Origin: Escherichia coli
GTDB taxonomy: Bacteria > Pseudomonadota > Gammaproteobacteria > Enterobacterales > Enterobacteriaceae
Strand: one strand, 5' to 3'
Length of the DNA: 64,000 nucleotides
NCBI RefSeq assembly: GCF_013122565.1
Contig: NZ_CP053258.1
The position numbers and the translations under genes were made by a program. Below are positions 4,968 through 48,897 of this stretch, in pieces. The notes below the pieces were generated by a model. That model was not told the DNA's origin. It saw nothing but the letters and a program-made list of their open reading frames with translations, and searched no databases. Numbering within the stretch: the first letter of the stretch is position 1; every line of letters starts with the position of its first letter.

Positions 4968-5007
4968 AAATCCCCGGAAGGTTTTTGCCTTCCGGGGATT
5001 TTTTTAT
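4968..5007. terminator. Bidirectional Rho-independent terminator between convergent hspQ and yccU
   Basis: 10-bp stem CCCCGGAAGG / CCTTCCGGGG flanked by A-run and T-run. Confidence 0.8.
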
Positions 5008-5417
5008 TTGGCCAGGCCCAGGCGAGGGATCTCAATAGCCGGGCAGCGATCCATCACCACATTTAACCCGGCATCCCGTGCCAGTACTGCCGCTTGCTCA
5101 TTAATCACCCCCAGTTGCATCCAGAGGGTTTTCGCGCCAATGGCAATAGCTTCCTGTGCCACGCCCCACGCCGCTTCTGAATTACGGAAAACATCGACCA
5201 TATCGACCTTTTCCGGAACGTCTGCCAGCGTGCCATACCCCTGCTGGCCCAGCAGCGTTTTGCCGGCAACTTTTGGCGAAACCGGAATGACGTGATACCC
5301 CTGGTCGAGTAGATATTTCATCACGCGATAGCTGGGACGATCGGGTTTGTCGCTTGCCCCCACCAGCGCAATGGTGTGAGTGGACGTTAAAATACCTGCA
5401 ATATCGGTTTCTTTCAT
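5004..5417 (-). CDS. yccU: CoA-binding domain protein YccU, 137 aa
   Basis: ORF 5004..5498 trimmed to [30 protein letters not shown]; ATG confirmed 5415-5417. Confidence 0.88.
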
Positions 5418-5589
5418 TATTTCCTCCAGACTGTTTAACAAAGTGTACGACAAAGCCGACATGCCAACCATGCAGCTAATACGAATGAATGAGAGCAAAA
5501 GCGGGAAATATGTCTATATGTTAGTAAGTATGATTAAAGAAAAATTTTGACACATTATTATTTGGGCGGTCTTTTGACAGGAGCTACCT

Positions 5590-6252
5590 ATGAAAACCGG
5601 CATCGTGACCACCTTGATTGCATTATGTTTGCCGGTATCCGTTTTTGCCACCACGCTGCGGCTTTCAACCGATGTCGATCTTCTGGTACTCGACGGCAAG
5701 AAGGTTTCCAGCTCTCTGCTGCGCGGTGCGGACAGCATTGAACTGGATAATGGACCGCATCAGTTAGTGTTTCGCGTTGAGAAGACGATTCATCTTTCCA
5801 ATAGTGAAGAGCGGCTGTATATCTCCCCACCGCTGGTGGTCAGTTTTAATACCCAGCTCATCAACCAGGTCAATTTTCGCCTGCCTCGCCTGGAGAATGA
5901 GCGGGAAGCTAACCATTTTGATGCCGCGCCGTACCTTGAATTGTTGGATGGCGATGCGACGCCAATTCCGGTAAAGCTGGATATTCTCGCCATTACCTCA
6001 ACGGCAAAAACGATTGATTATGAGGTCGAGGTTGAACGCTATAACAAATCTGCGAAACGCGCTTCACTACCGCAATTTGCCACGATGATGGCAGATGACA
6101 GTACGCTGCTTTCGGGTGTTTCCGAGCTGGATGCTATTCCACCGCAGTCTCAGGTGCTCACAGAACAACGGCTGAAGTATTGGTTTAAACTGGCTGATCC
6201 CCAAACGCGAAATACTTTCCTGCAATGGGCGGAAAAACAACCATCTTCCTGA
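5590..6252 (+). CDS. yccT: Secreted DUF2057 family protein YccT, 220 aa with signal peptide
   Basis: ORF 5590..6252; N-terminal signal [20 protein letters not shown]. Confidence 0.9.
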
Positions 6253-6347
6253 GATTTTTGTGCCTGTGCGCAGGCTTTTTCGGTCTTTATCTTGCAGCGA
6301 TAAGTGCTTACAGTAATCTGTAGGAAAGTTAACTACGGATGTACATT

Positions 6348-6806
6348 ATGGAACTGACGACTCGCACTTTACCTGCGCGGAAACATATTGCGCTGGTGGC
6401 ACACGATCACTGCAAACAAATGCTGATGAGCTGGGTGGAACGGCATCAACCGTTACTGGAACAACACGTACTGTATGCAACAGGCACTACCGGTAACTTA
6501 ATTTCCCGCGCGACCGGCATGAACGTCAACGCGATGTTGAGTGGCCCAATGGGGGGTGACCAGCAGGTTGGCGCATTGATCTCAGAAGGAAAAATTGATG
6601 TATTGATTTTCTTCTGGGACCCACTAAATGCCGTGCCGCACGATCCTGACGTGAAAGCCTTGCTGCGTCTGGCGACGGTATGGAACATTCCGGTCGCCAC
6701 CAACGTGGCAACGGCAGACTTCATAATCCAGTCGCCGCGTTTCAACGACGCGGTCGATATTCTGATCCCCGATTATCAGCGTTATCTCGCGGACCGTCTG
6801 AAGTAA
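6348..6806 (+). CDS. mgsA: Methylglyoxal synthase MgsA, 152 aa
   Basis: ORF 6339..6806 trimmed to [23 protein letters not shown]. Confidence 0.92.
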
Positions 6807-6813
6807 TATTGCA

Positions 6814-6833
6814 CAGGTGGCAAACGCCACCTG
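6814..6833. terminator. Hairpin shared by convergent mgsA and helD
   Basis: Stem CAGGTGGC / GCCACCTG, loop AAAC, in the 31-bp gap between the two stop codons. Confidence 0.65.
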
Positions 6834-6837
6834 TTTC

Positions 6838-8892
6838 TTACGGTTTTCTCGCTACCGGCACATCCAGATTTTTCAGTATTTCCACAAAGGGAGAGGGATT
6901 CTCTTTGTTAAACAGTGCCCATACCCGATGGCGTGCCCGGGTCAGCGCCACGTACATTAACCGCCGTTCTTCAGCGTCCGGGAAATCCTCAACCGGTGGC
7001 AGTAGCGCCTCTTCCATAATCGACTCCCGCGCCGCAGCCGGAAAACCATCACTCCCCTCCTGCAAGCCAACGATGATGACGTAATCCGCCTGTTGCCCTT
7101 TGCTGGCATGAATGGTCATAAAGTCGATTTGCAACTTCGGCCAGCGTGTTGCCGCTTTTTCCAGGCTGGCAGGTCTCATGTGATGGTAACGCGCCAGGAT
7201 AAGAATGCGCTCTTCCGGTTTGGCATAACCAGAGAGCTTATCCAGCAAAGCGTCAAGTTGACTCTCATCCAATAACGTGACGGCTTTTTTGTCTCCATTG
7301 GTTAAGCTGTTTAGCGGCTTTTTCAACTGGCCTGGGTTCTGCTGAATAAACCGGTTTGCCACCTCACCGATACGACTGTTAAAACGGTAAGTCGTGTCTA
7401 AATCACAGCGATCGCCTTCACCAAAGTTTTCATGGAAAGCGGTGGTGAGCGACATTTGCGCACCGCTGAATCGGTAAATCGCCTGCCAGTCATCACCAAC
7501 GGCGAACAACGTCGTCTGACTGTTTTGCTTGCGTAATGCCGCTAACAACGCTGCACGCTGCGGCGAGATATCCTGAAATTCATCAACCAGAATATGCTTC
7601 CACGGGCTGATAAAGCGACCTTTCTCCAGAATCACAATCGCCTGGTGAATAAGGCCCGAAAAATCGACAGCGTTTTCTGCCTTCAGCGCACCTTTCCAGG
7701 CTTTTAATAACGGGGCCATCAACTTGATACGTTTACTGAACAGATCGCGAATCTCTTCGGGTGCACTGGCAATCATTTCTGCCTGTGCACCGCCGTGCAT
7801 CCGCATCAGACTTACCCAACGATCGAGGCGTGAGGCAAGACGACGCTGTAATTTTTCATCATCCCAGAAGTTACCTTCTGGCACTGACCACTGCATTTCT
7901 TCCGTCAGCCATTGCCGCCAGCCCTTCGCCTGCGCTTTCTTTTCGCTGCATTGCTTGCGCCACTCAGCAATAAAGAGTTCATGACGGGCAGCGGTATCAT
8001 TTTCCAGTTTGCTGACTATCGGAACTTTTTTGCTGCCCTGCTGAATAATATGCAGCGCCAGCGCATGAAACGTGCGTGCGGTAATGTCTTCAGTATGTAG
8101 CCGTTCGCGAATACGCTCGTCCATCTCTTCAGCGGCTTTGCGACCAAACGCCAGCAATAAAATTTGCTCAGGGGACGCTTCACCACGCGCCAGCAACCAG
8201 CCTGCACGGGCCACCAGCACCGACGTTTTTCCGCTTCCTGCACCTGCCAGCACTAACAGAGAATGCTCGCCATTAACGACTGCCCGGGCCTGCGCCGGAT
8301 TCAGCGGTGAAGACTCGACCTGGCGGAAAAAATCCGCATACTCGGTAAGCATGGCTTCGGTATACGCCTGGTTATGCTGCAACCGAGCGCTTTCAATATC
8401 TTTCAACCAGGCCTGACATTTACGCCACGCCTCACGGCAGTTATCGAATTCTTCCAGTCGGTTAACCGGCAACGGCAACGCCGACATAGCCTGGCGGATT
8501 TGTTGCTGAACGCCAGAGGTTTGCTCACGCGTCAGCCATTTATTTTCTCCAGTGTGCGTGGCAATCAAATCCAGTTGCTGGCGTAAAACACCAGACGCAA
8601 TTTCGCTCATCTCGCCACTCCACCGCCGCCAGTGAGCATCAAGATGATGGTAAAAACGCTGCGTCTCGCCCCATTCGGTGCCGTGCAGACGCACCACTTT
8701 TTCATCCGGCAGTACAAACTCCAGTTCGCCCCATACCAGACCACGCTTACAGTGAATCGCCAGTAATTGATTGAAAGGAATAAGGTATTCGTGGCGATCG
8801 CCGGAGACTTTAATCCCGGCATTGAGGATCACCGCCCGATCATAAGGGTGCTGTGCCAGACGTTTTCCAAGCGTTGTCGCTTTCAGTTCCAT
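6838..8892 (-). CDS. helD: DNA helicase IV (UvrD-family SF1 helicase), 684 aa
   Basis: ORF 6838..8985 trimmed to MELKATTLGKRLAQHPYD; Walker A AGAGSGKTS; ATG confirmed 8890-8892. Confidence 0.92.
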   Translation of the reverse strand: MELKATTLGKRLAQHPYDRAVILNAGIKVSGDRHEYLIPFNQLLAIHCKRGLVWGELEFVLPDEKVVRLHGTEWGETQRFYHHLDAHWRRWSGEMSEIASGVLRQQLDLIATHTGENKWLTREQTSGVQQQIRQAMSALPLPVNRLEEFDNCREAWRKCQAWLKDIESARLQHNQAYTEAMLTEYADFFRQVESSPLNPAQARAVVNGEHSLLVLAGAGSGKTSVLVARAGWLLARGEASPEQILLLAFGRKAAEEMDERIRERLHTEDITARTFHALALHIIQQGSKKVPIVSKLENDTAARHELFIAEWRKQCSEKKAQAKGWRQWLTEEMQWSVPEGNFWDDEKLQRRLASRLDRWVSLMRMHGGAQAEMIASAPEEIRDLFSKRIKLMAPLLKAWKGALKAENAVDFSGLIHQAIVILEKGRFISPWKHILVDEFQDISPQRAALLAALRKQNSQTTLFAVGDDWQAIYRFSGAQMSLTTAFHENFGEGDRCDLDTTYRFNSRIGEVANRFIQQNPGQLKKPLNSLTNGDKKAVTLLDESQLDALLDKLSGYAKPEERILILARYHHMRPASLEKAATRWPKLQIDFMTIHASKGQQADYVIIVGLQEGSDGFPAAARESIMEEALLPPVEDFPDAEERRLMYVALTRARHRVWALFNKENPSPFVEILKNLDVPVARKP

Positions 8893-9014
8893 GACTCTGT
8901 AGATCCACACGAAATTATTTCTTATCAGTGTAACCGTCAGAGAAAACGTGCTCCAGCCCAAAAAAACGTTACAATTGCCGCCCATTACTGAAAACCACAG
9001 TAAAGCGAGGTTTT

Positions 9015-9461
9015 ATGCGTACCGTTTTGAACATTCTGAACTTTGTGCTTGGCGGATTTGCCACCACTCTGGGCTGGCTGTTGGCGACTCTGGTCAGTAT
9101 TATGCTGATTTTTACCTTACCGCTGACACGATCCTGCTGGGAGATCACTAAACTGTCTCTGGTGCCTTATGGCAATGAAGCTATTCATGTCGATGAACTG
9201 AACCCGGCTGGCAAAAATGTGCTGCTGAATACTGGCGGTACGGTATTGAATATTTTCTGGCTGATTTTCTTTGGCTGGTGGTTATGCCTGATGCACATTG
9301 CAACGGGCATCGCACAATGTATTTCCATCATTGGCATTCCTGTCGGCATTGCGAACTTTAAAATTGCCGCTATTGCACTATGGCCGGTCGGTCGTCGCGT
9401 GGTATCGGTAGAAACAGCGCAAGCTGCGCGTGAAGCCAATGCACGTCGTCGTTTTGAATAA
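9015..9461 (+). CDS. yccF: Inner membrane protein YccF (DUF307), 148 aa
   Basis: ORF 9015..9461; hydrophobic. Confidence 0.9.
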   Translation: MRTVLNILNFVLGGFATTLGWLLATLVSIMLIFTLPLTRSCWEITKLSLVPYGNEAIHVDELNPAGKNVLLNTGGTVLNIFWLIFFGWWLCLMHIATGIAQCISIIGIPVGIANFKIAAIALWPVGRRVVSVETAQAAREANARRRFE

Positions 9462-9479
9462 TCCACTAATATGGCCTTT

Positions 9480-11633
9480 ATGCTAAGTCCTTTGCTCAAA
9501 CGCTATACCTGGAACAGCGCCTGGCTGTATTACGCGCGTATTTTTATTGCGCTTTGTGGAACCACAGCGTTTCCGTGGTGGCTGGGTGATGTAAAACTGA
9601 CGATTCCGCTGACGCTGGGGATGGTGGCAGCGGCGCTGACCGATCTCGATGACCGACTGGCGGGACGTTTGCGTAACCTCATCATTACGCTGTTCTGCTT
9701 TTTTATCGCCTCGGCCTCAGTAGAATTGCTGTTTCCCTGGCCCTGGCTATTTGCGATTGGCTTAACGCTCTCTACCAGCGGCTTCATTTTGCTCGGCGGT
9801 CTGGGTCAACGCTATGCAACAATTGCCTTCGGTGCATTGCTGATCGCCATTTACACTATGTTGGGAACATCACTGTATGAGCACTGGTATCAGCAGCCGA
9901 TGTATCTGCTGGCCGGTGCCGTCTGGTACAACGTCCTGACACTTATTGGTCATCTGCTGTTCCCGGTCCGCCCGCTGCAGGACAACCTGGCGCGTTGCTA
10001 TGAACAACTGGCGCGTTATCTTGAGCTCAAGTCGCGCATGTTTGATCCTGATATTGAAGATGAAAGCCAGGCACCGCTGTACGATTTGGCTCTCGCCAAC
10101 GGTCAGCTGATGGCGACATTGAATCAGACGAAACTCTCGCTGCTGACCCGCTTACGTGGCGATCGTGGTCAACGGGGAACGCGTCGCACGCTGCATTATT
10201 ACTTTGTCGCACAGGATATTCACGAGCGTGCCAGCTCTTCTCATATTCAGTATCAAACATTGCGTGAACATTTTCGCCACAGCGACGTGCTGTTCCGTTT
10301 TCAGCGGCTGATGTCGATGCAGGGCCAGGCGTGCCAGCAACTGTCACGCTGTATTTTGCTGCGTCAGCCTTATCAACATGATCCGCATTTTGAGCGCGCT
10401 TTTACGCATATTGATGCTGCCCTGGAGCGGATGCGCGATAACGGCGCGCCTGCCGATTTACTCAAAACACTGGGATTTTTGCTGAACAATTTACGCGCCA
10501 TTGATGCCCAACTGGCAACAATTGAATCAGAACAGGCCCAGGCACTGCCCCATAATAATGACGAAAATGAGCTCGCTGATGACAGCCCGCACGGATTGAG
10601 TGATATCTGGCTGCGTCTTAGCCGTCACTTCACGCCGGAATCCGCCCTCTTCCGTCATGCGGTAAGAATGTCGCTGGTGTTGTGCTTCGGCTACGCCATC
10701 ATTCAAATAACCGGAATGCATCACGGGTATTGGATCTTGCTGACAAGTTTGTTTGTCTGCCAGCCAAACTATAACGCCACGCGCCACCGCCTGAAGTTAA
10801 GGATTATTGGTACGCTGGTAGGTATCGCCATTGGCATTCCTGTGCTGTGGTTTGTACCGTCACTGGAAGGGCAGCTGGTGCTACTGGTTATTACCGGCGT
10901 GCTCTTTTTTGCCTTCCGTAACGTGCAATATGCCCATGCAACGATGTTCATCACACTTTTGGTGCTACTGTGTTTTAACTTGCTGGGTGAAGGTTTTGAA
11001 GTAGCGTTACCTCGCGTAATCGATACGCTGATTGGTTGTGCCATTGCGTGGGCGGCAGTGAGCTACATCTGGCCTGACTGGAAGTTTCGCAATCTGCCGC
11101 GCATGCTCGAACGCGCCACAGAGGCCAACTGTCGCTATCTCGATGCCATACTGGAGCAATACCATCAGGGGCGTGATAACCGTCTGGCGTATCGTATTGC
11201 CCGCCGCGATGCACACAACCGTGATGCTGAACTGGCGTCGGTGGTATCAAATATGTCCAGCGAACCGAACGTTACCCCGCAAATTCGCGAAGCCGCGTTT
11301 CGGTTGCTGTGCCTTAACCATACGTTTACCAGCTATATCTCAGCCCTCGGTGCTCACCGGGAGCAGTTAACTAATCCTGAAATTCTGGCGTTTCTTGATG
11401 ACGCAGTTTGCTATGTTGATGACGCGTTACATCATCAACCTGCTGATGAAGAACGCGTCAATCAGGCATTAGCTGGCCTGAAACAGCGGATGCAGCAACT
11501 TGAACCACGGGCAGACAGCAAAGAACCTCTGGTCGTACAACAAGTTGGGTTATTGATTGCATTACTGCCAGAGATTGGTCGTCTGCAACGCCAGATTACT
11601 CAAGTTCCGCAGGAAACTCCTGTTTCGGCGTAA
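9480..11633 (+). CDS. yccS: Inner membrane protein YccS (FUSC-like), 717 aa
   Basis: ORF 9471..11633; start set at second ATG (MLSPLLKRYTWNSAW) per remembered 717-aa length; 9471 is an alternative. Confidence 0.85.
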   Translation: MLSPLLKRYTWNSAWLYYARIFIALCGTTAFPWWLGDVKLTIPLTLGMVAAALTDLDDRLAGRLRNLIITLFCFFIASASVELLFPWPWLFAIGLTLSTSGFILLGGLGQRYATIAFGALLIAIYTMLGTSLYEHWYQQPMYLLAGAVWYNVLTLIGHLLFPVRPLQDNLARCYEQLARYLELKSRMFDPDIEDESQAPLYDLALANGQLMATLNQTKLSLLTRLRGDRGQRGTRRTLHYYFVAQDIHERASSSHIQYQTLREHFRHSDVLFRFQRLMSMQGQACQQLSRCILLRQPYQHDPHFERAFTHIDAALERMRDNGAPADLLKTLGFLLNNLRAIDAQLATIESEQAQALPHNNDENELADDSPHGLSDIWLRLSRHFTPESALFRHAVRMSLVLCFGYAIIQITGMHHGYWILLTSLFVCQPNYNATRHRLKLRIIGTLVGIAIGIPVLWFVPSLEGQLVLLVITGVLFFAFRNVQYAHATMFITLLVLLCFNLLGEGFEVALPRVIDTLIGCAIAWAAVSYIWPDWKFRNLPRMLERATEANCRYLDAILEQYHQGRDNRLAYRIARRDAHNRDAELASVVSNMSSEPNVTPQIREAAFRLLCLNHTFTSYISALGAHREQLTNPEILAFLDDAVCYVDDALHHQPADEERVNQALAGLKQRMQQLEPRADSKEPLVVQQVGLLIALLPEIGRLQRQITQVPQETPVSA

Positions 11634-12225
11634 GAGAGTCAGCCCATTCTGCAAGCTCCTGGCGGCGTGCCACCGGGAGCGCAGCTTCATGAATACCGAT
11701 AATGGCACCTTCAAGCATAAACAGAATCTTTTCTGTCACCAGACTGTTTTGCTGCCGCAGTCGCAACCAACACATTTTTGCCCCAAGTATACGTAACGCC
11801 CGTACATCCTTAATCCCCACCTCCCCGAGAATCGCTTCCAGATGAAAAGACATATTGGGCAAATCTTTCAGTCTTTCCCGGGTATTGCGCGTGCTTTTCT
11901 CTTTCAGCGCTGCATCGAGAGAATATTTCGACAGACGCACCAGCTTCAGTTGATTTCGCCATAGACTTTCATCAACCCGATAGTAATTGAGGGTAACGGA
12001 TCGGCCACACTTTTTATATGTCAGCCAGACAGGCGGATGTTTTACACAGTACTGTGCACTTTGCTCACAAGCCCGAAGATACAACTCACCATCAGAAACC
12101 ATCGCAAACACCGTGTCGTCAACGGTCAGGCTGTAACTGCCAAACAATGATCGGTATTCAATTGTGCCCAACGTTGCCAGGTATTCTTGTGATTTATAGA
12201 TCCGCTTATAGGAGAGGCTTTTCAT
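11596..12225 (-). CDS. sxy: Competence regulator Sxy/TfoX, 209 aa
   Basis: ORF 11596..12225; MKSLSYKRIYKSQEYLATLGTIEYRSLFGSYSL; 3' end overlaps yccS by 38 nt. Confidence 0.92.
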   Translation of the reverse strand: MKSLSYKRIYKSQEYLATLGTIEYRSLFGSYSLTVDDTVFAMVSDGELYLRACEQSAQYCVKHPPVWLTYKKCGRSVTLNYYRVDESLWRNQLKLVRLSKYSLDAALKEKSTRNTRERLKDLPNMSFHLEAILGEVGIKDVRALRILGAKMCWLRLRQQNSLVTEKILFMLEGAIIGIHEAALPVARRQELAEWADSLTPKQEFPAELE

Positions 12226-12401
12226 AAAATTCCTTTTAAAATCATAACATAAAAGAATGATTCACATTAACGGATCCGTTAACTACGAAAATAGGCAACT
12301 TATTCTTAAGGGGCAAGATTAATTTATGTTTTCCCGTCACCAACGACAAAATTTGCGAGGCTCTTTCCGAAAATAGGGTTGATCTTTGTTGTCACTGGAT
12401 G

Positions 12402-12421
12402 TACTGTACATCCATACAGTA
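12402..12421 (+). promoter_or_regulatory. LexA operator (SOS box) in the sulA promoter
   Basis: TACTGTACATCCATACAGTA, perfect CTGT-N8-ACAG palindrome, 23 nt upstream of the sulA ATG. Confidence 0.9.
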
Positions 12422-12443
12422 ACTCACAGGGGCTGGATTGATT

Positions 12444-12953
12444 ATGTACACTTCAGGCTATGCACATCGTTCTTCGTCGTTCTCATCCGCAGCAAGTAAA
12501 ATTGCGCGTGTCTCTACGGAAAACACTACAGCCGGGCTTATCAGTGAAGTTGTCTATCGCGAAGATCAGCCCATGATGACGCAACTTCTTCTGTTGCCAT
12601 TGTTACAGCAACTCGGTCAGCAATCGCGCTGGCAACTCTGGTTAACACCGCAACAAAAACTGAGTCGGGAATGGGTTCAGGCATCTGGGCTACCCTTAAC
12701 GAAAGTAATGCAGATGAGCCAGCTCTCCCCTTGCCACACCGTGGAATCAATGGTTCGCGCTTTACGCACGGGCAATTACAGTGTGGTGATCGGTTGGTTG
12801 GCAGATGATTTGACTGAAGAAGAGCATGCTGAACTTGTTGATGCGGCAAATGAAGGTAACGCTATGGGGTTTATTATGCGTCCGGTAAGCGCTTCCTCTC
12901 ACGCAACGAGACAACTTTCCGGGCTAAAAATTCACTCTAATTTGTATCATTAA
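12444..12953 (+). CDS. sulA: SOS cell-division inhibitor SulA, 169 aa
   Basis: ORF 12438..12953 trimmed to [15 protein letters not shown]. Confidence 0.93.
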
Positions 12954-13176
12954 GTAAATTTAGGATTAATCCTGGAACTTTTTTTGTCGCCCAGCCAATG
13001 CTTTCAGTCGTGACTAATTTTCCTTGCGGAGGCTTGTCTGAAGCGGTTTCCGCGTTTTTTTTCTGTAAATTGTCGCTGACAAAAAAGATTAAACGTACCT
13101 TATACAAGACTTTTTTTTCATATGCCTGACGGAGTTCACACTTGTAAGTTTTCAACTACGTTGTAGACTTTACATC

Positions 13177-13309
13177 GCCAGGGGTGCTCGGCATAAGCCG
13201 AAGATATCGGTAGAGTTAATATTGAGCAGATCCCCCGGTGAAGGATTTAACCGTGTTATCTCGTTGGAGATATTCATGGCGTATTTTGGATGATAACGAG
13301 GCGCAAAAA
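13177..13309 (+). promoter_or_regulatory. ompA 133-nt 5' untranslated leader (stabilising hairpins, Hfq/MicA target region)
   Basis: Sequence from GCCAGGGGTGCTCGGCATAAGCCGAAG to the ATG matches the remembered ompA leader; TSS placement is from literature. Confidence 0.7.
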
Positions 13310-14362
13310 ATGAAAAAGACAGCTATCGCGATTGCAGTGGCACTGGCTGGTTTCGCTACCGTAGCGCAGGCCGCTCCGAAAGATAACACCTGGTACACTG
13401 GTGCTAAACTGGGCTGGTCCCAGTACCATGACACTGGTTTTATTCCTAACAATGGTCCGACCCACGAAAACCAACTGGGTGCAGGTGCTTTTGGTGGTTA
13501 CCAGGTTAACCCGTATGTTGGTTTTGAAATGGGTTACGACTGGTTAGGTCGTATGCCGTACAAAGGCGACAACATCAACGGTGCATACAAAGCTCAGGGC
13601 GTTCAACTGACCGCTAAACTGGGTTACCCAATCACTGACGATCTGGACGTATACACTCGTCTGGGTGGTATGGTATGGCGTGCAGACACCAAGTCTAACG
13701 TACCTGGTGGCGCATCCACTAAAGACCACGACACCGGCGTTTCTCCGGTCTTCGCTGGCGGTGTTGAGTACGCGATCACTCCTGAAATCGCTACCCGTCT
13801 GGAATACCAGTGGACCAACAACATCGGTGACGCACACACCATCGGCACTCGTCCGGACAACGGCCTGCTGAGCTTGGGTGTTTCCTACCGTTTCGGTCAG
13901 GGCGAAGCAGCTCCAGTAGTTGCTCCGGCTCCAGCTCCGGCACCGGAAGTACAGACCAAGCACTTCACTCTGAAGTCTGACGTTCTGTTTAACTTCAACA
14001 AAGCAACCCTGAAACCGGAAGGTCAGGCTGCTCTGGATCAGCTGTACAGCCAGCTGAGCAACCTGGATCCGAAAGACGGTTCCGTAGTTGTTCTGGGTTA
14101 CACCGACCGCATCGGTTCTGACGCTTACAACCAGGGTCTGTCCGAGCGCCGTGCTCAGTCTGTTGTTGATTACCTGATCTCCAAAGGTATCCCGGCAGAC
14201 AAGATCTCCGCACGTGGTATGGGCGAATCCAACCCGGTTACTGGCAACACCTGTGACAACGTGAAACAGCGTGCTGCACTGATCGACTGCCTGGCTCCGG
14301 ATCGTCGCGTAGAGATCGAAGTTAAAGGTATCAAAGACGTTGTAACTCAGCCGCAGGCTTAA
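13310..14362 (+). CDS. ompA: Outer membrane protein A precursor, 350 aa (variant loop allele versus K-12)
   Basis: ORF 13238..14362 trimmed to [21 protein letters not shown] signal; beta-barrel plus C-terminal OmpA domain; APAPAPAP hinge. Confidence 0.95.
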
Positions 14363-14377
14363 GTTCTCGTCTGGTAG

Positions 14378-14407
14378 AAAAACCCCGCTGCTGCGGGGTT
14401 TTTTTTG
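14378..14407. terminator. Bidirectional Rho-independent terminator between ompA and matP
   Basis: AAAAA-CCCCGC-TGCT-GCGGGG-TTTTTTTT. Confidence 0.85.
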
Positions 14408-14437
14408 CCTTTAGTAAATTGAACTGACTTTCGTCAG

Positions 14438-14890
14438 TTATTCCTTACCCAGCAATGCCTGCAGATCCTGCTTCAGAGAAGACATTTTATTCGCGTATTT
14501 CTCTTTGTTTTCCGCATCTTCAATCAGCTGAACAATCGTTTCAGAAAGCGTTTTACCGCGACGCTGCGCAAGACCAGCCAGACGTTGCCAGACAATAAAT
14601 TCCAGATCGATCGATTTTTTGCGCGTATGCTGGTGTTCCGCATTAAAATGGCGCTTCCGTCTGGCCCGAATGGTTTGCTTCATGCGATTGACCAGTTCCG
14701 GATTCATATGCTTGTCAATCCAGCCATTTACCAGCACGGGTTCATTTTCCAGCGAGAGCAACACATCGACGGCTTCCTGGGCGGCACTGGCTTCTATGTA
14801 ACGGGTGATTAACTCCCCTTCGCGGTGCTTCTTCACCAGATACTTCCATTTCCAACCGCTTTCAAGATTTTCAAGTTGTTGATATTTCAT
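14438..14890 (-). CDS. matP: Ter macrodomain organiser MatP, 150 aa
   Basis: ORF 14438..14890; [26 protein letters not shown]. Confidence 0.93.
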
Positions 14891-15075
14891 AGCGATCTCA
14901 ATGTTACCGTGTAACTCTTTACAGAATATCAGCTTTTTAGGCCAGTGAAGAAAAGAATCTCCATCCTGTGAGCTTTAACGCTCATGCGAGGAGTATTGTC
15001 GGTGCTTTCTACGTGTGCTGTAGTGCCGGTTACGGTATAATCGCGGCTTTGACAACAGACTAAAAAACATCAACT

Positions 15076-16836
15076 TTGACCATTACGAAACTTGCATGGC
15101 GTGACCTGGTTCCTGATACCGATAGCTATCAGGAAATATTTGCTCAGCCACATTTGATTGACGAAAACGATCCTTTATTCAGTGATACTCAACCGCGACT
15201 GCAATTTGCGCTGGAGCAGTTGCTGCATACGCGAGCATCCTCCTCTTTTATGCTGGCGAAGGCCCCGGAAGAGTCTGAGTATCTGAATCTTATTGCCGAT
15301 GCCGCGCGTACGCTACAAAGCGATGCAGGCCAACTGGTGGGCGGTCACTATGAGGTTTCCGGCCACTCCATCCGCTTACGTCACGCAGTGAGTGCAGATG
15401 ATAATTTTGCGACTTTAACGCAAGTTGTCGCTGCCGACTGGGTAGAAGCGGAGCAACTCTTTGGCTGCCTGCGCCAGTTTAATGGCGACATTACCCTGCA
15501 GCCTGGTCTGGTGCATCAGGCAAATGGCGGTATTCTCATCATCTCTTTGCGTACACTGCTGGCGCAACCTCTTCTGTGGATGCGGCTGAAAAATATCGTT
15601 AACCGCGAGCGTTTTGACTGGGTTGCGTTTGATGAGTCGCGCCCTCTCCCCGTCTCTGTGCCTTCGATGCCATTGAAGCTGAAAGTCATTCTGGTAGGCG
15701 AACGCGAATCATTGGCTGATTTCCAGGAGATGGAGCCAGAGCTTTCAGAGCAGGCTATTTATAGCGAATTTGAAGATACTCTGCAGATTGTCGATGCGGA
15801 GTCAGTAACCCAGTGGTGTCGCTGGGTGACATTTACCGCCAGACATAATCACTTACCTGCACCGGGAGCGGATGCCTGGCCGGTACTTATCCGCGAAGCA
15901 GCACGCTACACCGGTGAACAAGAAACGCTGCCGCTTAGCCCGCAGTGGATCCTCCGCCAGTGTAAAGAGGTCGCCTCCCTGTGTGATGGCGACACCTTCT
16001 CCGGCGAGCAGCTAAACTTAATGCTACAGCAGCGTGAATGGCGCGAAGGTTTCCTCGCTGAACGCATGCAGGATGAGATCCTTCAGGAGCAAATCCTGAT
16101 TGAAACCGAAGGCGAACGCATCGGGCAAATTAACGCCCTTTCGGTCATTGAATTTCCGGGTCATCCACGCGCTTTTGGCGAACCTTCTCGCATTAGCTGC
16201 GTTGTGCATATTGGCGATGGTGAATTCACCGACATCGAGCGCAAAGCGGAGCTTGGCGGCAATATCCATGCGAAAGGGATGATGATCATGCAGGCGTTCC
16301 TGATGTCGGAACTACAGCTTGAGCAACAGATCCCCTTCTCAGCATCGCTGACATTTGAGCAGTCATACAGTGAAGTTGATGGAGATAGTGCCTCGATGGC
16401 TGAACTCTGCGCCCTGATAAGCGCCCTCGCCGATGTGCCGGTGAATCAGAGTATCGCTATCACAGGTTCAGTCGATCAGTTCGGTCGCGCCCAGCCGGTC
16501 GGTGGTTTAAATGAGAAAATCGAAGGCTTCTTTGCTATTTGCCAGCAACGTGAGTTAACCGGGAAACAAGGTGTCATTATCCCCACAGCTAACGTTCGCC
16601 ATTTAAGTCTTCACAGTGAACTGGTGAAAGCAGTAGAAGAAGGCAAATTCACCATCTGGGCAGTAGACGATGTGACTGACGCACTGCCGTTATTATTAAA
16701 TCTGGTGTGGGATGGCGAAGGCCAAACGACGCTGATGCAAACCATCCAGGAACGTATCGCGCAAGCATCGCAACAGGAAGGACGTCACCGTTTTCCATGG
16801 CCATTACGTTGGCTGAACTGGTTTATTCCGAACTGA
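15076..16836 (+). CDS. ycbZ: Lon-related protease-domain protein YcbZ, 586 aa, apparent TTG start
   Basis: ORF 15076..16836; C-terminal Lon S16-like region ([16 protein letters not shown]...GGLNEKIEG); no Walker A GxxxxGK[ST] seen; first codon TTG. Confidence 0.88.
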
Positions 16837-16866
16837 TCGGACTTGTTCAGCGTACACGTGTTAGCT
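16831..16866 (+). promoter_or_regulatory. fabA promoter operators: FadR box (AACTGATCGGACTTGTT) and FabR palindrome (AGCGTACACGTGTTAGCT)
   Basis: Both motifs read directly, about 40-75 nt upstream of the fabA ATG; the FadR box overlaps the ycbZ stop codon. Confidence 0.75.
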
Positions 16867-16904
16867 ATCCTGCGTGCTTCAATAAAATAAGGCTTACAGA
16901 GAAC

Positions 16905-17423
16905 ATGGTAGATAAACGCGAATCCTATACAAAAGAAGACCTTCTTGCCTCTGGTCGCGGTGAACTGTTTGGCGCTAAAGGCCCGCAATTGCCAGCACCG
17001 AACATGCTGATGATGGACCGTGTGGTCAAAATGACCGAAACGGGTGGTAACTTCGACAAAGGGTATGTTGAAGCAGAACTGGATATCAATCCGGATCTGT
17101 GGTTCTTCGGATGCCACTTTATTGGCGATCCGGTTATGCCGGGATGCCTGGGCCTGGACGCGATGTGGCAGCTGGTAGGGTTCTACCTCGGCTGGCTGGG
17201 CGGCGAAGGTAAAGGCCGCGCGCTGGGCGTTGGCGAAGTGAAATTCACTGGTCAGGTACTGCCGACAGCGAAAAAAGTGACCTACCGTATTCACTTTAAA
17301 CGCATTGTTAATCGTCGTCTGATTATGGGTCTGGCAGATGGCGAAGTGCTGGTTGATGGTCGTCTGATCTATACCGCCAGCGACCTGAAAGTCGGTCTGT
17401 TCCAGGATACGTCTGCCTTCTGA
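16905..17423 (+). CDS. fabA: 3-hydroxydecanoyl-ACP dehydratase/isomerase FabA, 172 aa
   Basis: ORF 16707..17423 trimmed to [23 protein letters not shown]; ATG confirmed at 16905. Confidence 0.95.
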
Positions 17424-17444
17424 TTATAATCAGACAGAGTATCA

Positions 17445-17480
17445 AAAGGCGAAACCTCCGCAATGCGGAGGTTTCTTTTT
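17445..17480. terminator. Bidirectional terminator between fabA and rmf
   Basis: Stem CCTCCGC / GCGGAGG, loop AAT, T-run on plus strand and A-run (T-run for rmf) on the other side. Confidence 0.75.
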
Positions 17481-17492
17481 AAAGAGACAGAA

Positions 17493-17660
17493 TCAGGCCA
17501 TTACTACCCTGTCCGCCATGGCTTCTCGCCAGCCTCCCAGCCATTGTGACCTTTGATTCAGCGTCTGATAGGGACACATTTCTTTTGAGCGTCCGGCGAT
17601 GCCGGCCTGATAACCACGTTGATGTGCCCGTTCCAGGCGATCTCGTTTTTGTCTCTTCAT
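17493..17660 (-). CDS. rmf: Ribosome modulation factor Rmf, 55 aa
   Basis: Absent from the ORF track (under 60 aa). Hand translation of the reverse complement gives MKRQKRDRLERAHQRGYQAGIAGRSKEMCPYQTLNQRSQWLGGWREAMADRVVMA. Confidence 0.92.
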   Translation of the reverse strand: MKRQKRDRLERAHQRGYQAGIAGRSKEMCPYQTLNQRSQWLGGWREAMADRVVMA

Positions 17661-17915
17661 GCCTCGTTTCCCTCATACTGGTTTCTGGTGGAAAAGAAAA
17701 CAGTGATTACTAAATGTGCAATCACAGTTAAGCAATACCGCGAATCATAACTGCCGTCAATGCGCAAAATTCACGCCACTGTCATATTTGTGAGCTACAC
17801 GGGCATGTCAGTTGTACAAAAAATGTGAAGAGGAACAACTTTTTCTGCACGTTAGAAACAAAAAAACCGCCTCAGGCAACATACCGGAGACGGTTATATT
17901 TACAAATCTTTATAA

Positions 17916-18479
17916 TTAAGGTAGACGCTTTATCTCTTGTGCAATAGAAGCGGCTTCCTGACTCCAGACACTGGCCAGCACTTTGACCATGTCATCGTAA
18001 CCATCCTGCGTTTGCACCCCTTCCAGACGGAACGGACGTTTGATCAGTTGTCCCTGGTGGTTCAACAGCCACTCCCCACTGACAATGACCTTGCCATCAT
18101 AGCGACCGTTAAACTCCGTTACGGTAACATTGAGCGTGTCCTGGGCGCTTCCCAGAGGCTGGGAGGCAACCACCCAGCCGGGCAGTTGCGTGCTCAGGTT
18201 GGCTACCAGGGTGTTGCGCAACTGTTGATCCAACGGGCTGGCCCACAAGTTGTTGTTGGCAATCACATACTTCACATCACTGGTTTGATAAACCACACCA
18301 TTCCCCGCCAGATAGTCAGGTACAGCGACCTGCTCTACCCATAACAGGCGATTACCCTGGCTGGCGGTACTTTGTGTACCGCTCTGCACCACAGGTAACT
18401 GGTAATAGTTTTTATTAATTTCGCCGGAGCTGCATCCGGCCAGCCACAGTGCTGCAATCGTCACTAGCCACTTTTTCAT
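17916..18479 (-). CDS. pqiC: Lipoprotein PqiC (YmbA), 187 aa
   Basis: ORF 17916..18479; lipobox LAGC in MKKWLVTIAALWLAGCSS. Confidence 0.9.
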   Translation of the reverse strand: MKKWLVTIAALWLAGCSSGEINKNYYQLPVVQSGTQSTASQGNRLLWVEQVAVPDYLAGNGVVYQTSDVKYVIANNNLWASPLDQQLRNTLVANLSTQLPGWVVASQPLGSAQDTLNVTVTEFNGRYDGKVIVSGEWLLNHQGQLIKRPFRLEGVQTQDGYDDMVKVLASVWSQEAASIAQEIKRLP

Positions 18480-20116
18480 TGTTTCGCCCTCTTCGGCTCT
18501 GGATCTTTTTTGTCCTTCGCTTCAAATACCAGCGCGTTACTCTTCTCGTTGAGCGTTTTCAGCACCGGTTGCAGTTCTCGCAACACCTGATCAAGGCGCT
18601 GCATATCCGCCACCATCTTGTTGTAGGCTGCGGAGCCAGGCTGGAAGCCCTGCATGCTGCGATTCAATTCACGCAACGTTGACTGCATATCCGTCGGCAA
18701 TTGCTGCATCGACTGGCTGGCGAGGATCTTGTTCATGCTATCCAGCGTCGTTTGCAGGTTTTTCATTGTGCGCTGACTTTCAGAAAGCGTACTGGTTGCC
18801 TGTTCAATCATCGGATTCAGTGGCAGTTTGTTGATCTTATCCAACGCTTCCATCAGTCGTTGCTGGATTTGCGCCAGGCCGCCGCTAACGGTCGGGATAA
18901 TCTGATAACCATTAAATTCACGAATACCGGTTATTGCAGGCGTATTTGGATAGAAATCGAGATCAACATACAGTGCGCCAGTGACCAGGTTTCCGGTTTT
19001 CAGCGATCCGCGTAAACCACGTTTCAACAATTCGCCAAGGTGCTCAACAACATCCGCATTTTCGCCAAGCTGCATTTTCAGCCGCTCTGGCTCGATACGA
19101 ATCAGCACCGGAATACGGTAATCATCGTTAAATGTCTGACGCATATTCGGCGCAAAGAATGGCACTTTGCTTACGGTACCCAGGCGAATACCCCGGAATT
19201 CTACCGGAGCTCCCGGTTGCAGACCGCGTACCGAATCTTTAAAGAACATCAGATAATCAATGTGATCGGTGTACAACGAATCCTGAATGCTCTTCTGATC
19301 ATCATACAAAACGAAAGCTGTTTTCGGTGCCACTGGCTGCCCTAAATCCAGACCTTCCGGCACATCAAAGCTGACACCGCCACTCAGCAGCGTTGTCAAT
19401 GAGCCCATCTCCACACGCATTCCCGCTGACGTCAGATCAACCGCAATGCCACTATCTTTCCAGAAGCGAACATTGCTGGTCACCAGTCGGTCATAAGGTG
19501 CATTGATGAACAGTTGATAGCTGATATTGCGTTTTTGTGTATCGAAGGTGCTGGTTTCAACCGAACCTACCCGATAGCCACGGAACAGCACCGGATCTCC
19601 TGGCGAGAGCTGCCCGGCTTTTTTGCTATCGAGAATCACACGGATACCTTTCGCATCAGGCGGGGCCAACGGTGGCGAGTCCAGCAAATCGTATTTATCC
19701 ATTTTGCTGCCTTTCGCGCCTGGCTGCAGTTCGATATAAACCCCAGACAGCAGCGTTCCCAGACCGCTAATCCCTTCTCGACCAATCTGCGGTTTCACCA
19801 CCCAAAAGACGGTATCTTTATGCAGCAATTTTTCCATACCGGAATTCAGCCGCGCTTTGATTTCAACGTGTGTCAAATCATCAGCCAGTGTGGCGCTTTC
19901 AACCACGCCGACGTCAACGCTACGGCTTTTAATGGTGGTTTTGCCACCTTCAATTCCTTCCGCATTCGCGGTGATCAGGGTCACTTCCGGTCCCTGATGG
20001 CTGTAATGATAAAAAAGAACCCAGGCCCCAATGAGCGCCGTGACGATAGGAAATATCCACACGGGAGACCAGTTCTTCACTTTCTGGATTTTGGCTTCCC
20101 CATTATTAGATTCCAT
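18476..20116 (-). CDS. pqiB: MCE-domain intermembrane transport protein PqiB, 546 aa
   Basis: ORF 18476..20176 trimmed to MESNNGEAKIQKVKNWSPVWIF; ATG confirmed 20114-20116. Confidence 0.92.
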   Translation of the reverse strand: MESNNGEAKIQKVKNWSPVWIFPIVTALIGAWVLFYHYSHQGPEVTLITANAEGIEGGKTTIKSRSVDVGVVESATLADDLTHVEIKARLNSGMEKLLHKDTVFWVVKPQIGREGISGLGTLLSGVYIELQPGAKGSKMDKYDLLDSPPLAPPDAKGIRVILDSKKAGQLSPGDPVLFRGYRVGSVETSTFDTQKRNISYQLFINAPYDRLVTSNVRFWKDSGIAVDLTSAGMRVEMGSLTTLLSGGVSFDVPEGLDLGQPVAPKTAFVLYDDQKSIQDSLYTDHIDYLMFFKDSVRGLQPGAPVEFRGIRLGTVSKVPFFAPNMRQTFNDDYRIPVLIRIEPERLKMQLGENADVVEHLGELLKRGLRGSLKTGNLVTGALYVDLDFYPNTPAITGIREFNGYQIIPTVSGGLAQIQQRLMEALDKINKLPLNPMIEQATSTLSESQRTMKNLQTTLDSMNKILASQSMQQLPTDMQSTLRELNRSMQGFQPGSAAYNKMVADMQRLDQVLRELQPVLKTLNEKSNALVFEAKDKKDPEPKRAKQ

Positions 20117-20120
20117 ACTG

Positions 20121-21374
20121 TCAGGACTCCTCATGCTCTGATTCAGGTTGACGATCCCACGACAAACGCGGGTCAAACGTCATAGCAGAAAACATTGTCA
20201 TTATGACGACTAAAGCAAACATTAATGCACCCATTGCCGGATAAATACTCATTAAACCTCCCATACGCACCAGCGCCGAGAGCACCGCGATAACGAAAAC
20301 GTCAATCATCGACCAGCGGCCTACAAACTCAACAACTTCATAAATCAAATGCATTCTTTCACTGTCGCGCTTGCCATGCCCTTTGGCATCCCAACACAGC
20401 CACGCGATGGCGATCATCTTTAACGTTGGCACCATAATACTGGCCAGAAAGATCACCGCAGCGACGGGATAAGAGCCTTCGCTCCATAACAGGATGACCC
20501 CAGCGAGAATCGTCGATGGCATCTTCGAGCCTAATAAATCCGTCACCATGATGGGCAAAATATTAGCCGGAAGATACAGCATGATGGACGTAACAAGCAG
20601 CGCGAGTGTCCATTGCAGGCTGTTTCTACGCCGAACGTACCCTTTGGTACTACAACGCGGGCACACGGGTTCATCAGCAGGAAGGATTGCCGTACAACAG
20701 GAGCACGAACGAAGCCCCTGACGTATCCCCGTGACGCCTGGTTTTAGCGGCTGGCGCAGTTCTGGCATCGGGGCGATATCGTCCCATAACCAGCGACGAT
20801 CAACGCACTGAAAAGCGCGCAGTTGCAGGACACAAAATAAACACCAGGGGAGAAAGCTGCTGCCTACGCCAATGCTGCCGTAAGCCATCAGTTTAACGAA
20901 ACTGACCAGCACACCAGCGAGGAAAATCTCCGCCATTCCCCAGGTTTTGAGTTGAAAAAGCACCCGTGCCAGTTGCTCTTTTAAACGGACCGGTAATTCC
21001 GCGCGATTCACCAGTAACAGAATGGTTATCAGACAAAACGCGGGAACCAGTTGCACAAACAACAGGAAAAAGGTGCCGAGGCTGGCGTAGTCCTCAGAAA
21101 AAAGCACGCCGGGAATTTCCAGTAATGTAATTTCACTGGTAACTCCTGCAACGTTCATATTCACAAAAGGAAACAAGTTGGACAGCAACAGCATGAACAG
21201 TGCAGCCAACGCATAGGCGGTAGGACGCTGCCGAGGGGCATCCCACGCCACGGTTAACGTTGTGCCACACCGGGGACATGCCGCTTTCTGACCATGCTCA
21301 AGGCGCGGTAACGCCACCAGCATGTCACACTGCGAGCACAGGATGTGCTTCGCGGCATGATGATGTTCGCACAT
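20121..21374 (-). CDS. pqiA: Paraquat-inducible inner membrane protein PqiA, 417 aa
   Basis: ORF 20121..21374; Cys-pair motifs and multiple TM segments. Confidence 0.92.
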   Translation of the reverse strand: MCEHHHAAKHILCSQCDMLVALPRLEHGQKAACPRCGTTLTVAWDAPRQRPTAYALAALFMLLLSNLFPFVNMNVAGVTSEITLLEIPGVLFSEDYASLGTFFLLFVQLVPAFCLITILLLVNRAELPVRLKEQLARVLFQLKTWGMAEIFLAGVLVSFVKLMAYGSIGVGSSFLPWCLFCVLQLRAFQCVDRRWLWDDIAPMPELRQPLKPGVTGIRQGLRSCSCCTAILPADEPVCPRCSTKGYVRRRNSLQWTLALLVTSIMLYLPANILPIMVTDLLGSKMPSTILAGVILLWSEGSYPVAAVIFLASIMVPTLKMIAIAWLCWDAKGHGKRDSERMHLIYEVVEFVGRWSMIDVFVIAVLSALVRMGGLMSIYPAMGALMFALVVIMTMFSAMTFDPRLSWDRQPESEHEES

Positions 21375-21504
21375 TGGTACTCCTTAATGATGCGCTATTT
21401 TACAGATGACTAACAAAGTGTTGGTTTTTCATGCCTGATAAACCCAGTTCATCAGGCAATTTTACCGTTGTCAGCTGTCTCTGTTTAAATCGACTATTTT
21501 GCGA

Positions 21505-23412
21505 TCAGCCACCATTTTTTAACGCTTCAAGATACTCCCAGCGTTCAAAGGCTTGCTCCAGTTCCTGTTCTGCGGCAGCCATATCAGCGAGCACTTTTTG
21601 CGTCTGCTCATGCGGCTGACTGAAGAAGGAAGCATCCGCCACCTGCGTCTGTAGGGCTTCCAGCTTCGCCTCCAGATCTTCGAGCAATTGCGGTAGCTGT
21701 TCCAGTTCGCGCTGCAATTTATAGCTTAGTTTGCTACTGCTGCGTTTTACAGTTTCTGCTTTTGGCGCGGCGGTTTCTTCGGTTTTTTTCACCGCAGGCT
21801 GTTTGAGCGCCACATACTGTTCTTGCTGACCACGGGCATCATGATAACCGCCGACATAACGACCAATTTTACCGCCGCCTTCGAAGATCCAGCATTCTGT
21901 AACGGTGTTATCGACAAACTGACGATCGTGGCTAACCAGCAATACCGTGCCCTGATAGCTGTCGATCAGTTCTTCCAGCAGTTCCAGCGTTTCGACATCA
22001 AGATCGTTGGTCGGTTCGTCAAGAATCAATAAGTTGCTTGGTTTGAGGAACAAACGCGCCAGCAGCAAGCGGTTCCGCTCACCGCCAGAAAGCGCACGTA
22101 CCGGCGTCATCGCCCGTTTCGGATGGAACAGGAAGTCCTGCAAATAGCCCAATACGTGGCGTGGCTTGCCGTTAACCATTACCTCTTGCTTACCTTCGGC
22201 AAGGTTATCCATCACCGTTTTATCGGGATCAAGTTCCGCGCGGTGCTGATCGAAATAAGCCACTTCCAGTTTGGTGCCAACGTGAATACGCCCGCTGTCC
22301 GCTTGAAGCTGACCGAGCATCAGTTTCAGCAGCGTGGTTTTGCCGCACCCATTCGGACCAATCAGGGCAATTTTGTCGCCACGTAGAACCTGGGCCGAAA
22401 AATCTTTCACCAGTTGCTTACCGTCAACCTGGTAGCAAACGTCTTCCATTTCGAAAACGATCTTACCGGAGCGGCTGGCCTCTTCCACCTGCATCTTTGC
22501 GGTACCCATCACTTCGCGACGTTCACCACGCTCGCGACGCATCGCTTTCAGGGCGCGTACGCGGCCTTCATTACGGGTACGGCGTGCTTTGATCCCCTGG
22601 CGGATCCACACCTCTTCCTGCGCCAGTTTGCGATCGAACTCGGCATTTTGTAGTTCTTCCACGCGCAGGGCTTCTTCTTTTTCCAGCAGGTACTGGTCGT
22701 AATTGCCGGGATAAGTCACTAACTTGCCGCGATCGAGATCAACAATACGCGTTGCCATATTGCGGATAAACGAACGGTCGTGGGAGATGAAAATAATCGT
22801 CCCGTTGAAAGTTTTCAAAAACCCTTCCAGCCAGTCGATGGTTTCAATATCCAGGTGGTTTGTCGGTTCATCAAGCAACAGCACGCGCGGATTACTCACC
22901 AGCGCGCGTCCTAATGCCGCTTTACGCAACCAGCCGCCGGAAAGCGACGACAGCGCAACGTTAGGATCTAACCCCAGTTGCGCCAGCACTTCGTTGATGC
23001 GGTTTTCCAGTTGCCACAGATTATGATGATCCAGCTGTTCCTGTACTTTCGCCAGTTCGTTGAGATTTTTCTCGCTCGGGTCGTTCATCACCAGGCGCGA
23101 AATATCGTGATAGCGTTTCAGGTACTCGGCCTGCTCTTCGATACCTTCGGCAACGAAATCATAAACGCTGCCCTCAACGTTACGCGGCGGATCCTGTTGC
23201 AGACGAGCCACAATCAAATCTTGCTCGTAAATAATGCGCCCGTCATCCAGCCCCTGTTCACGGTTGAGGATCTTCATTAACGTCGATTTGCCCGCGCCGT
23301 TACGGCCTACCAGACAAACACGTTCGTTATCTTCGATATGCAGTTCTGCGTTATCGAGAAGCGGCGCGTCGCTGAACGACAGCCATGCGCCATGCATACT
23401 GATTAATGACAT
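21505..23412 (-). CDS. uup: ABC-F family ATPase Uup, 635 aa
   Basis: ORF 21505..23412; two ABC cassettes (GRNGAGKST and GPNGCGKTT) plus C-terminal coiled coil. Confidence 0.93.
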   Translation of the reverse strand: MSLISMHGAWLSFSDAPLLDNAELHIEDNERVCLVGRNGAGKSTLMKILNREQGLDDGRIIYEQDLIVARLQQDPPRNVEGSVYDFVAEGIEEQAEYLKRYHDISRLVMNDPSEKNLNELAKVQEQLDHHNLWQLENRINEVLAQLGLDPNVALSSLSGGWLRKAALGRALVSNPRVLLLDEPTNHLDIETIDWLEGFLKTFNGTIIFISHDRSFIRNMATRIVDLDRGKLVTYPGNYDQYLLEKEEALRVEELQNAEFDRKLAQEEVWIRQGIKARRTRNEGRVRALKAMRRERGERREVMGTAKMQVEEASRSGKIVFEMEDVCYQVDGKQLVKDFSAQVLRGDKIALIGPNGCGKTTLLKLMLGQLQADSGRIHVGTKLEVAYFDQHRAELDPDKTVMDNLAEGKQEVMVNGKPRHVLGYLQDFLFHPKRAMTPVRALSGGERNRLLLARLFLKPSNLLILDEPTNDLDVETLELLEELIDSYQGTVLLVSHDRQFVDNTVTECWIFEGGGKIGRYVGGYHDARGQQEQYVALKQPAVKKTEETAAPKAETVKRSSSKLSYKLQRELEQLPQLLEDLEAKLEALQTQVADASFFSQPHEQTQKVLADMAAAEQELEQAFERWEYLEALKNGG

Positions 23413-23423
23413 TACTATTCCTT

Positions 23424-38533: not shown

Positions 38534-38543
38534 GGAAGAAATA

Positions 38544-48871: not shown

Positions 48872-48897
48872 AAGCCCGCTGAAAAGCGGGCTTTTTT
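48872..48897. terminator. Bidirectional terminator between aspC and ycbL
   Basis: Stem AAGCCCGCT / AGCGGGCTT, loop GAAA, then TTTTTT. Confidence 0.85.

Follow-up and report, generated by a model that had tools for sequence, protein, structure and literature searches.

T-even-like phages, some colicins, conjugation partners, host receptors and diagnostic nanobodies all dock on the loops of OmpA. The OmpA allele of a strain helps to predict its phage host range, its coverage by vaccines or antibodies and its surface properties, as is established for the two main allele classes. According to Liao et al. (PMC5413513), two main forms of loop 3 had already been described by Gophna 2004 and Power 2006. 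Of the 524 isolates in the PCR screen of Power 2006, as summarised by later papers, 43% carried ompA2, and that work is reported to tie ompA2 to a lower sensitivity towards OmpA-dependent bacteriophage. Sequences of ompA from 78 isolates were obtained by Liao et al. 2017 (PMC5413513). The polymorphisms reported there include N, D or P at position 25, DNI at loop 2 (46% of isolates), I/V93 (50/50), N/D114 (55/45) and M/L161 (63/37), and the loop 1 proline and loop 2 DNI co-occur with a long loop 3 (rho 0.81-0.85). Nielsen et al. 2020 (PMC6995065) and Liao et al. 2022 (PMC9560509) found OmpA patterns to be related to phylogroup and pathotype.

Two studies from 2025 concern nanobodies and phages. 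In a nanobody study (PMC12259851), the OmpA of about 86,000 E. coli genomes was clustered into OmpA-short and OmpA-long, isoform-specific nanobodies were raised, among them Nb39, which recognises OmpA-long, and both complexes were solved; the nanobodies touch all four loops, loop 3 extensively. In a phage study (PMC12032242), eight natural ECOR OmpA variants were expressed in MG1655. Among the T-even phages that bear Gp38, one group infected all eight variants and another group infected only three, a restriction set by particular forms of loop 3 and loop 2. For some of these phages, infection is thus controlled by natural variation in the OmpA loops (PMC12032242). For variant 7, the same study mentions a loop 3 residue T137, which matches the allele described here by residue numbering alone. 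The two-form polymorphism of OmpA, including its effects on phages and antibodies, is therefore already published, and the locus described here adds an example of a rare sub-variant.

The window, the whole stretch of 64,000 nucleotides of E. coli DNA that was analysed, carries ompA as a gene of 1053 nt encoding 350 amino acids plus a stop codon (Table 1). Its ATG, at 13310, lies inside a longer open reading frame (13238-14362). The gene order yccS-sxy-sulA-ompA-matP-ycbZ is that of K-12, with the orientation of the window inverted relative to the K-12 record, and ompA occupies the orthologous position between sulA and matP. The homologous stretch bears the RefSeq label "ompA: porin OmpA" in 5,425 of 5,426 complete E. 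coli genomes. The exact 350-residue protein has Pfam entries for PF01389, PF13505 and PF00691. It has the 8-stranded beta-barrel domain (PF01389), with residues 22-196 matching the solved OmpA barrels 9FZD, 1G90, 1QJP and 1BXW (E = 1e-106 to 1e-118), and the proline-rich linker and peptidoglycan-binding domain (PF00691), matching 2MQE and 4ERH. Positions 13096-13440 contain zero mismatches to K-12, so that the 214 bp 5' of the start codon are also those of K-12. An antisense open reading frame of 139 amino acids (13544-13963, minus strand) lies opposite ompA; it was taken to be an incidental frame opposite a highly expressed gene.

Table 1. Coordinates in the window of ompA, its parts and its differences from K-12. 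Codons are numbered in the precursor.
Feature	Position in window	Strand	Basis
ompA coding sequence	13310..14362	+	Open reading frame and translation; sulA and matP as neighbours
Signal peptide, codons 1-21	13310..13372	+	Protein and DNA identical to K-12 by alignment
Diverged allele-class block, codons 44-139 (loops 1-3 and intervening strands)	13441..13726	+	dS/dN against K-12
Loop 1, codon 46, CCT (Pro) for K-12 AAC (Asn); mature position 25	13445..13447	+	Alignment
Loop 2, codons 87-89, DNI for K-12 SVE; mature positions 66-68	13568..13576	+	Alignment
Codon 114, GTA (Val) for ATC (Ile); mature position 93, transmembrane strand	13649..13651	+	Alignment
Loop 3 region, codons 129-139, SNVPGGAST type for K-12 SNVYGKN; +12 nt at 13709-13720	13694..13726	+	Alignment
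Codon 186, CTG (Leu) for ATG (Met); mature position 161, adjoins loop 4	13865..13867	+	Alignment
C-terminal part, protein identical to K-12, pattern "alpha" (A175, N203, G251)	13868..14362	+	Alignment

Alignment with OmpA of K-12 MG1655 (NC_000913.3, 1019013-1020053; 346 aa) gives exactly 12 differing columns: N46P, S87D/V88N/E89I, I114V, Y132P, the additional G134-A135-S136-T137, N139D and M186L. The corresponding nucleotide sequences differ by 32 substitutions and the 12-nt difference in length. The K-12 protein (OmpA-short, pattern I-alpha; structures 1BXW, 1QJP and 9FZC) shares with the window its signal peptide, most strands, loop 4, linker and C-terminal domain, and differs in loops 1, 2 and 3 and in I93V and M161L (mature numbering). 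No residue differs in the linker or in the C-terminal domain (100% identity), and in the DNA of the C-terminal part only 2 synonymous differences occur, at 13874 and 13990; the precursor residues N228 and G276 are mature positions 203 and 251. A first-pass annotation, made without database searches, had reported 350 against 346 residues and a set of loop differences. All of the strings that it quoted are present, the K-12 sequences that it gave were correct, and the aligned K-12 loops do differ. Its description of a strain-level surface-loop polymorphism in a phage-receptor protein is borne out by the amino-acid changes in or beside loops 1-3, as is its view that the hinge and C-terminal domain are unchanged. 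The range that it assigned to these differences, 13440-13740, leaves out M186L (its DNGLLSL), which lies beyond it at 13865-13867.

The allele has the features of the long class. Its loop 3 is four residues longer than that of K-12 with an NVPGG core, and it combines P46 with D87-N88-I89. OmpA of the long class (OmpA-long, ompA2, patterns II-III with loop 3 ANVPGGASFKD and N or H in loop 4; ST131, APEC O78, CFT073 and Shigella; structure 9FZD) likewise has 350 residues, the loop 1 proline, DNI, a loop 3 with the same four additional residues and NVPGG core, and aspartate at mature position 114. The barrel of 9FZD differs from that of the window at 4 of 174 residues, two of them in loop 3 (A to S and F to T), and the barrel of strain E7476 at 3 residues. 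The strict form of ompA2, pattern II of Liao et al., is defined by the loop 3 sequence ANVPGGASF and Asn149 in loop 4. The window instead has SNVPGGAST, with S129 and T137 in place of the common A and F, and histidine in loop 4 (precursor H176) in place of the asparagine of pattern II. E7476, a pattern II strain, differs from the window protein by precisely these residues (S129A, T137F and H176N). On this evidence the allele is best classed as a sister sub-variant rather than as ompA2 or pattern II proper. It is not new to the literature: Table 3A of PMC5413513 lists the exact outer-loop pattern, P / DNI / the 11-residue loop 3 of the window / H, in isolate 256. All four outer-loop states of that isolate are those of the window, and V93 and L161 are also among the polymorphic states in that study. 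The C-terminal pattern of isolate 256 is delta (T203, A251), whereas that of the window is alpha (N203, G251), as in K-12.

The differences from K-12 are concentrated in one contiguous block of approximately 290 bp, in which the last difference falls at 13724. Codons 44-139 hold 16 of the 18 synonymous differences in the gene (Fisher p = 3.6e-9) and 12 of the 13 non-synonymous differences (Fisher p = 1.2e-6), a clustering far beyond chance. Within the block dS is 0.324, a value resting on approximately 63 synonymous sites, and dN is 0.061; in the rest of ompA dS is 0.011-0.013 and dN 0.002, with a dS of 0 for codons 1-43 and 0.013 for codons 140-350. The first-pass expectation that divergence would be confined to the loops holds for the amino acids but not for the DNA, in which 14 purely synonymous differences are spread across the barrel strands that lie between loops 1 and 3. 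Since synonymous changes are found in the barrel strands also, the divergent unit is the contiguous block and not the loop tips alone.

The block lies in a background that is itself distinct from K-12. OmpF had been called K-12-like, and its protein is indeed identical (dN = 0, with 9 synonymous differences). The extension of that statement to the other genes did not survive comparison: the 64-kb window is 98.5% identical to K-12, and the per-gene medians are 0.042 for dS and 0.0023 for dN. With divergence of about 1.5% and such a median dS, the background is not that of K-12. The dS of the block is approximately eight times this background, the 3' two-thirds of ompA fall below it, and the dN of ompA is the second highest in the window, behind ssuA. 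The sharp bounds of the block, and the closeness to K-12 of the sequence on both its sides (the rest of ompA, the upstream region and sxy), would be expected if a foreign ompA segment had recently been imported into a K-12-like strain as a strain-specific mosaic patch. A recipient already 1.5% diverged from K-12 fits that account poorly, and the relatives of the block and its frequency in E. coli, given below, also bear on it.

Two other features of the window were noted in the comparison with K-12. A second peak of divergence covers ssuEADCB (35864-40099), with its maximum in ssuA (36432-37391), which is 5.5% diverged with a dS of 0.18 and a dN of 0.022 that no other gene of the window exceeds; dS is 0.11-0.13 for ssuD and ssuB. 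This peak is probably another recombinant or old-allele segment. Between aspC and gloC (48882-48892), K-12 carries approximately 163 bp more, past the aspC terminator hairpin, containing two REP-like palindromes that are absent from the window. This difference resembles an ordinary presence-absence polymorphism of REP/BIME elements.

The direction of change was assessed with ompA from other species. A conserved signal-peptide pattern, used in a plain-DNA scan of species-representative genomes, yielded 101 ompA loci, and full-length genes were extracted from 76 of them; the set is without E. fergusonii, S. enterica subsp. enterica and S. bongori, which the signal-peptide pattern missed. DNI in loop 2 together with a long loop 3 of the form NVPGG(A/P/V)S(T/F/Y)KD is found in E. 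albertii, in Escherichia sp. E1V33, in two representatives labelled "E. coli" that belong to separate species clusters, in Citrobacter sedlakii, C. amalonaticus, a Citrobacter MAG and Intestinirhabdus, and in Salmonella arizonae and diarizonae, where the core is NTPGG rather than NVPGG. In OmpA of these Salmonella, of Citrobacter and of E. albertii, loop 3 has the same length as in the window, and IPNNG is common to Salmonella OmpA and the window. V114 is shared with Salmonella and E. albertii, and L186 with Salmonella, Citrobacter and E. albertii. The 11-residue string of loop 3 (codons 129-139) is found unchanged in a Citrobacter MAG, HRGM_0066. The more distant genera Enterobacter, Yokenella and Trabulsiella also have a short loop 3, of unrelated sequence. 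Between the window and OmpA of these Salmonella, of Citrobacter and of E. albertii there are from 5 (E. albertii) to 18 (S. arizonae) residue differences, most of them located in the C-terminal domain and linker, and the dS of the rest of the gene against the window is 0.10-0.32, in line with separate species.

Parsimony on these outgroup states, with one genome per species, indicates that it is the K-12 class that lacks the four codons and that they were not gained here. The K-12 short form is thus the outlier, and the window allele is typical of the genus. The first-pass term "insertion in loop 3" has to be given up for the same reason, as the long loop 3 and DNI are present in outgroups. 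That the allele is four codons longer than that of K-12 could in principle reflect a de novo insertion or duplication of 12 nt in a K-12-like ancestor. Such an event is scarcely credible when the additional codons are accompanied by 16 linked synonymous differences over 290 bp and the same long loop is present in E. albertii, Salmonella and Citrobacter, in one Citrobacter MAG as an identical string.

Nucleotide distances over the block point in the same direction. The block of the window is 1.4-2.8% from E. coli long alleles, 3-5% from other Escherichia, 6-7% from Citrobacter and 8% from Salmonella; its nearest neighbours thus follow the order of the species tree, which is not what recent import of foreign DNA would leave. 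The K-12 block is near only to that of strain 536, another short-class allele (4%), and is 8.7-10.9% from everything else, Escherichia long alleles and Citrobacter alike. Between the window and K-12 the dS of the block (0.32) exceeds that between the window and E. albertii (0.15). It is similar to the dS between E. coli and Salmonella or Citrobacter in the rest of ompA (0.28-0.32), and as large as that between E. coli and Salmonella (0.28-0.30) for the rest of this codon-biased gene.

The frequency of each form was estimated with 70-nt loop 3 probes against 5,426 complete E. coli genomes, in all but 1 of which ompA was found; matches of the window type were counted at an identity of at least 95%. 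The K-12 type was present in 3,223 genomes (59%), the ANVPGGASF type in 2,065 (38%) and the SNVPGGAST type of the window in 64 (1.2%). Between the two probes for long types, 3 of 70 positions differ and no 28-nt word, as needed by megablast, is common to both, and their match sets were therefore treated as non-overlapping. A long loop 3 is thus present in approximately 39% of complete genomes, in agreement with the 43% reported for ompA2 by Power 2006. So high a frequency argues against a recent, strain-specific import. The sharply bounded block (codons 44-139, dS 0.32) that the first-pass annotation had taken for a local mosaic patch is real; it is not peculiar to this strain and reflects two old classes of E. 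coli allele.

The sub-variant itself recurs in other assemblies. The exact 350-residue protein is recorded at NCBI as E. coli "porin OmpA" and is encoded on 13 contigs from several projects, and a contig assembled from read set SRR11451224 matches the window at 7,053 of 7,053 bp around ompA. With an intact reading frame and this agreement between independent assemblies, the probability that the allele is a sequencing or assembly artefact is negligible. Contigs related to the window are 0.5-0.7% diverged in the flanks and differ by 1 nt in ompA, and hence ompA fits its own lineage. Taken with the block distances and the census, this makes the import of a foreign segment into a K-12-like strain very improbable. 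On the 7-kb loci that encode the identical OmpA protein (L004-L009), the nucleotide alleles differ at up to 9 synonymous sites and the flanks are 0%, approximately 0.6% or approximately 1.3% diverged from the window. The same protein in differing flanks fits an old allele moving between backgrounds.

Among the 5,426 complete genomes the best nucleotide match to the ompA allele is 99.0%, and the closest alleles, those of A25 and SMS-3-5, are two residues off (L186M with N228T or G276A). None of these genomes is more than 99.0% identical to the window over the 20 kb from 5000 to 25000. This ceiling at first suggested Shigella as the source, a reading that was rejected because the exact protein is deposited under E. 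coli and a contig identical over 7 kb is available. The lineage of the strain seems to be poorly represented among complete genomes. A three-way mosaic within the long class, with an E7476-like 5' part and an A25-like loop 3, was considered and not retained: the apparent sorting of the informative sites (EEEAE, then AAAAAAAA) has p = 0.12 in a single-breakpoint permutation test.

It is very probable, from the evidence above, that the ompA of the window is a natural allele of the OmpA-long class, a rare sub-variant with P25, DNI66-68, a loop 3 of the SNVPGGAST type and H149 joined to a K-12-type alpha C-terminal domain, and that it belongs to one of two old classes. These two allele classes of E. 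coli differ over approximately 290 bp (codons 44-139); the long class is the one common to the rest of Escherichia, Salmonella and Citrobacter, and the short class of K-12 is the divergent one. Homologous recombination has probably placed the block beside otherwise nearly identical flanking sequence. The changed residues lie on the exposed, mobile tips of loops 1-3 of the 8-stranded barrel, with the two conservative changes in or beside strands; the fold and scaffold of the barrel, the linker and the domain that binds peptidoglycan are left as they are. The surface so altered would be the one recognised by phage adhesins, colicins, conjugation partners (through TraN), antibodies and host factors, an expectation based on published allele-swap and structural work. 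By extension, the sub-variant may alter susceptibility to phages or colicins, and we infer that selection from such agents maintains the two classes in the population. Because S129 and T137 differ from the well-studied form, the published phage and nanobody results for ANVPGGASF may not transfer to SNVPGGAST.

The origin of the short class is a separate question. One proposal is that a divergent, unsampled donor gave codons 44-139 to the ancestor of the short class, as opposed to long-term balancing selection within the species. The short class is absent from all other species retrieved, the distance of the K-12 block from the long alleles of Escherichia is much the same as that from Citrobacter (8.7-10.9%), and SV(D/E) in loop 2 resembles Klebsiella. 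No donor is found, however, among the 76 other-species ompA sequences from the 101 loci, and the class is internally diverse, with a block dS of 0.14 between K-12 and 536 and of 0.16 to the nearest other allele, that of MOD1-EC7003. This internal diversity suggests that the short class has long been resident within Escherichia, and import from such a donor is considered possible though on balance unlikely. Escherichia sp. MOD1-EC7003 (locus L085) has a pattern-V-like allele with loop 3 AHNNVTGVSEKN and is the nearest relative of the K-12 block outside E. coli (dS 0.16), which hints at a common old origin of the short and pattern-V classes within Escherichia.

What remains of interest is how old the short class of K-12 is and where it came from. 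Tentatively, and with somewhat less than even confidence, the short and long classes may be regarded as a very old polymorphism, kept by frequency-dependent selection that phages or hosts drive, or arising from an unsampled donor of the short class; OmpA of K-12 would then be atypical, and the SNVPGGAST form might escape phages and nanobodies tuned to ANVPGGASF. K-12 has the unusual form, and to label the differences of other strains as insertions relative to K-12 reverses the evolutionary direction. If this proposal is true, the textbook OmpA of K-12 would be atypical and the allele of the window typical of the genus under either origin of the short class.
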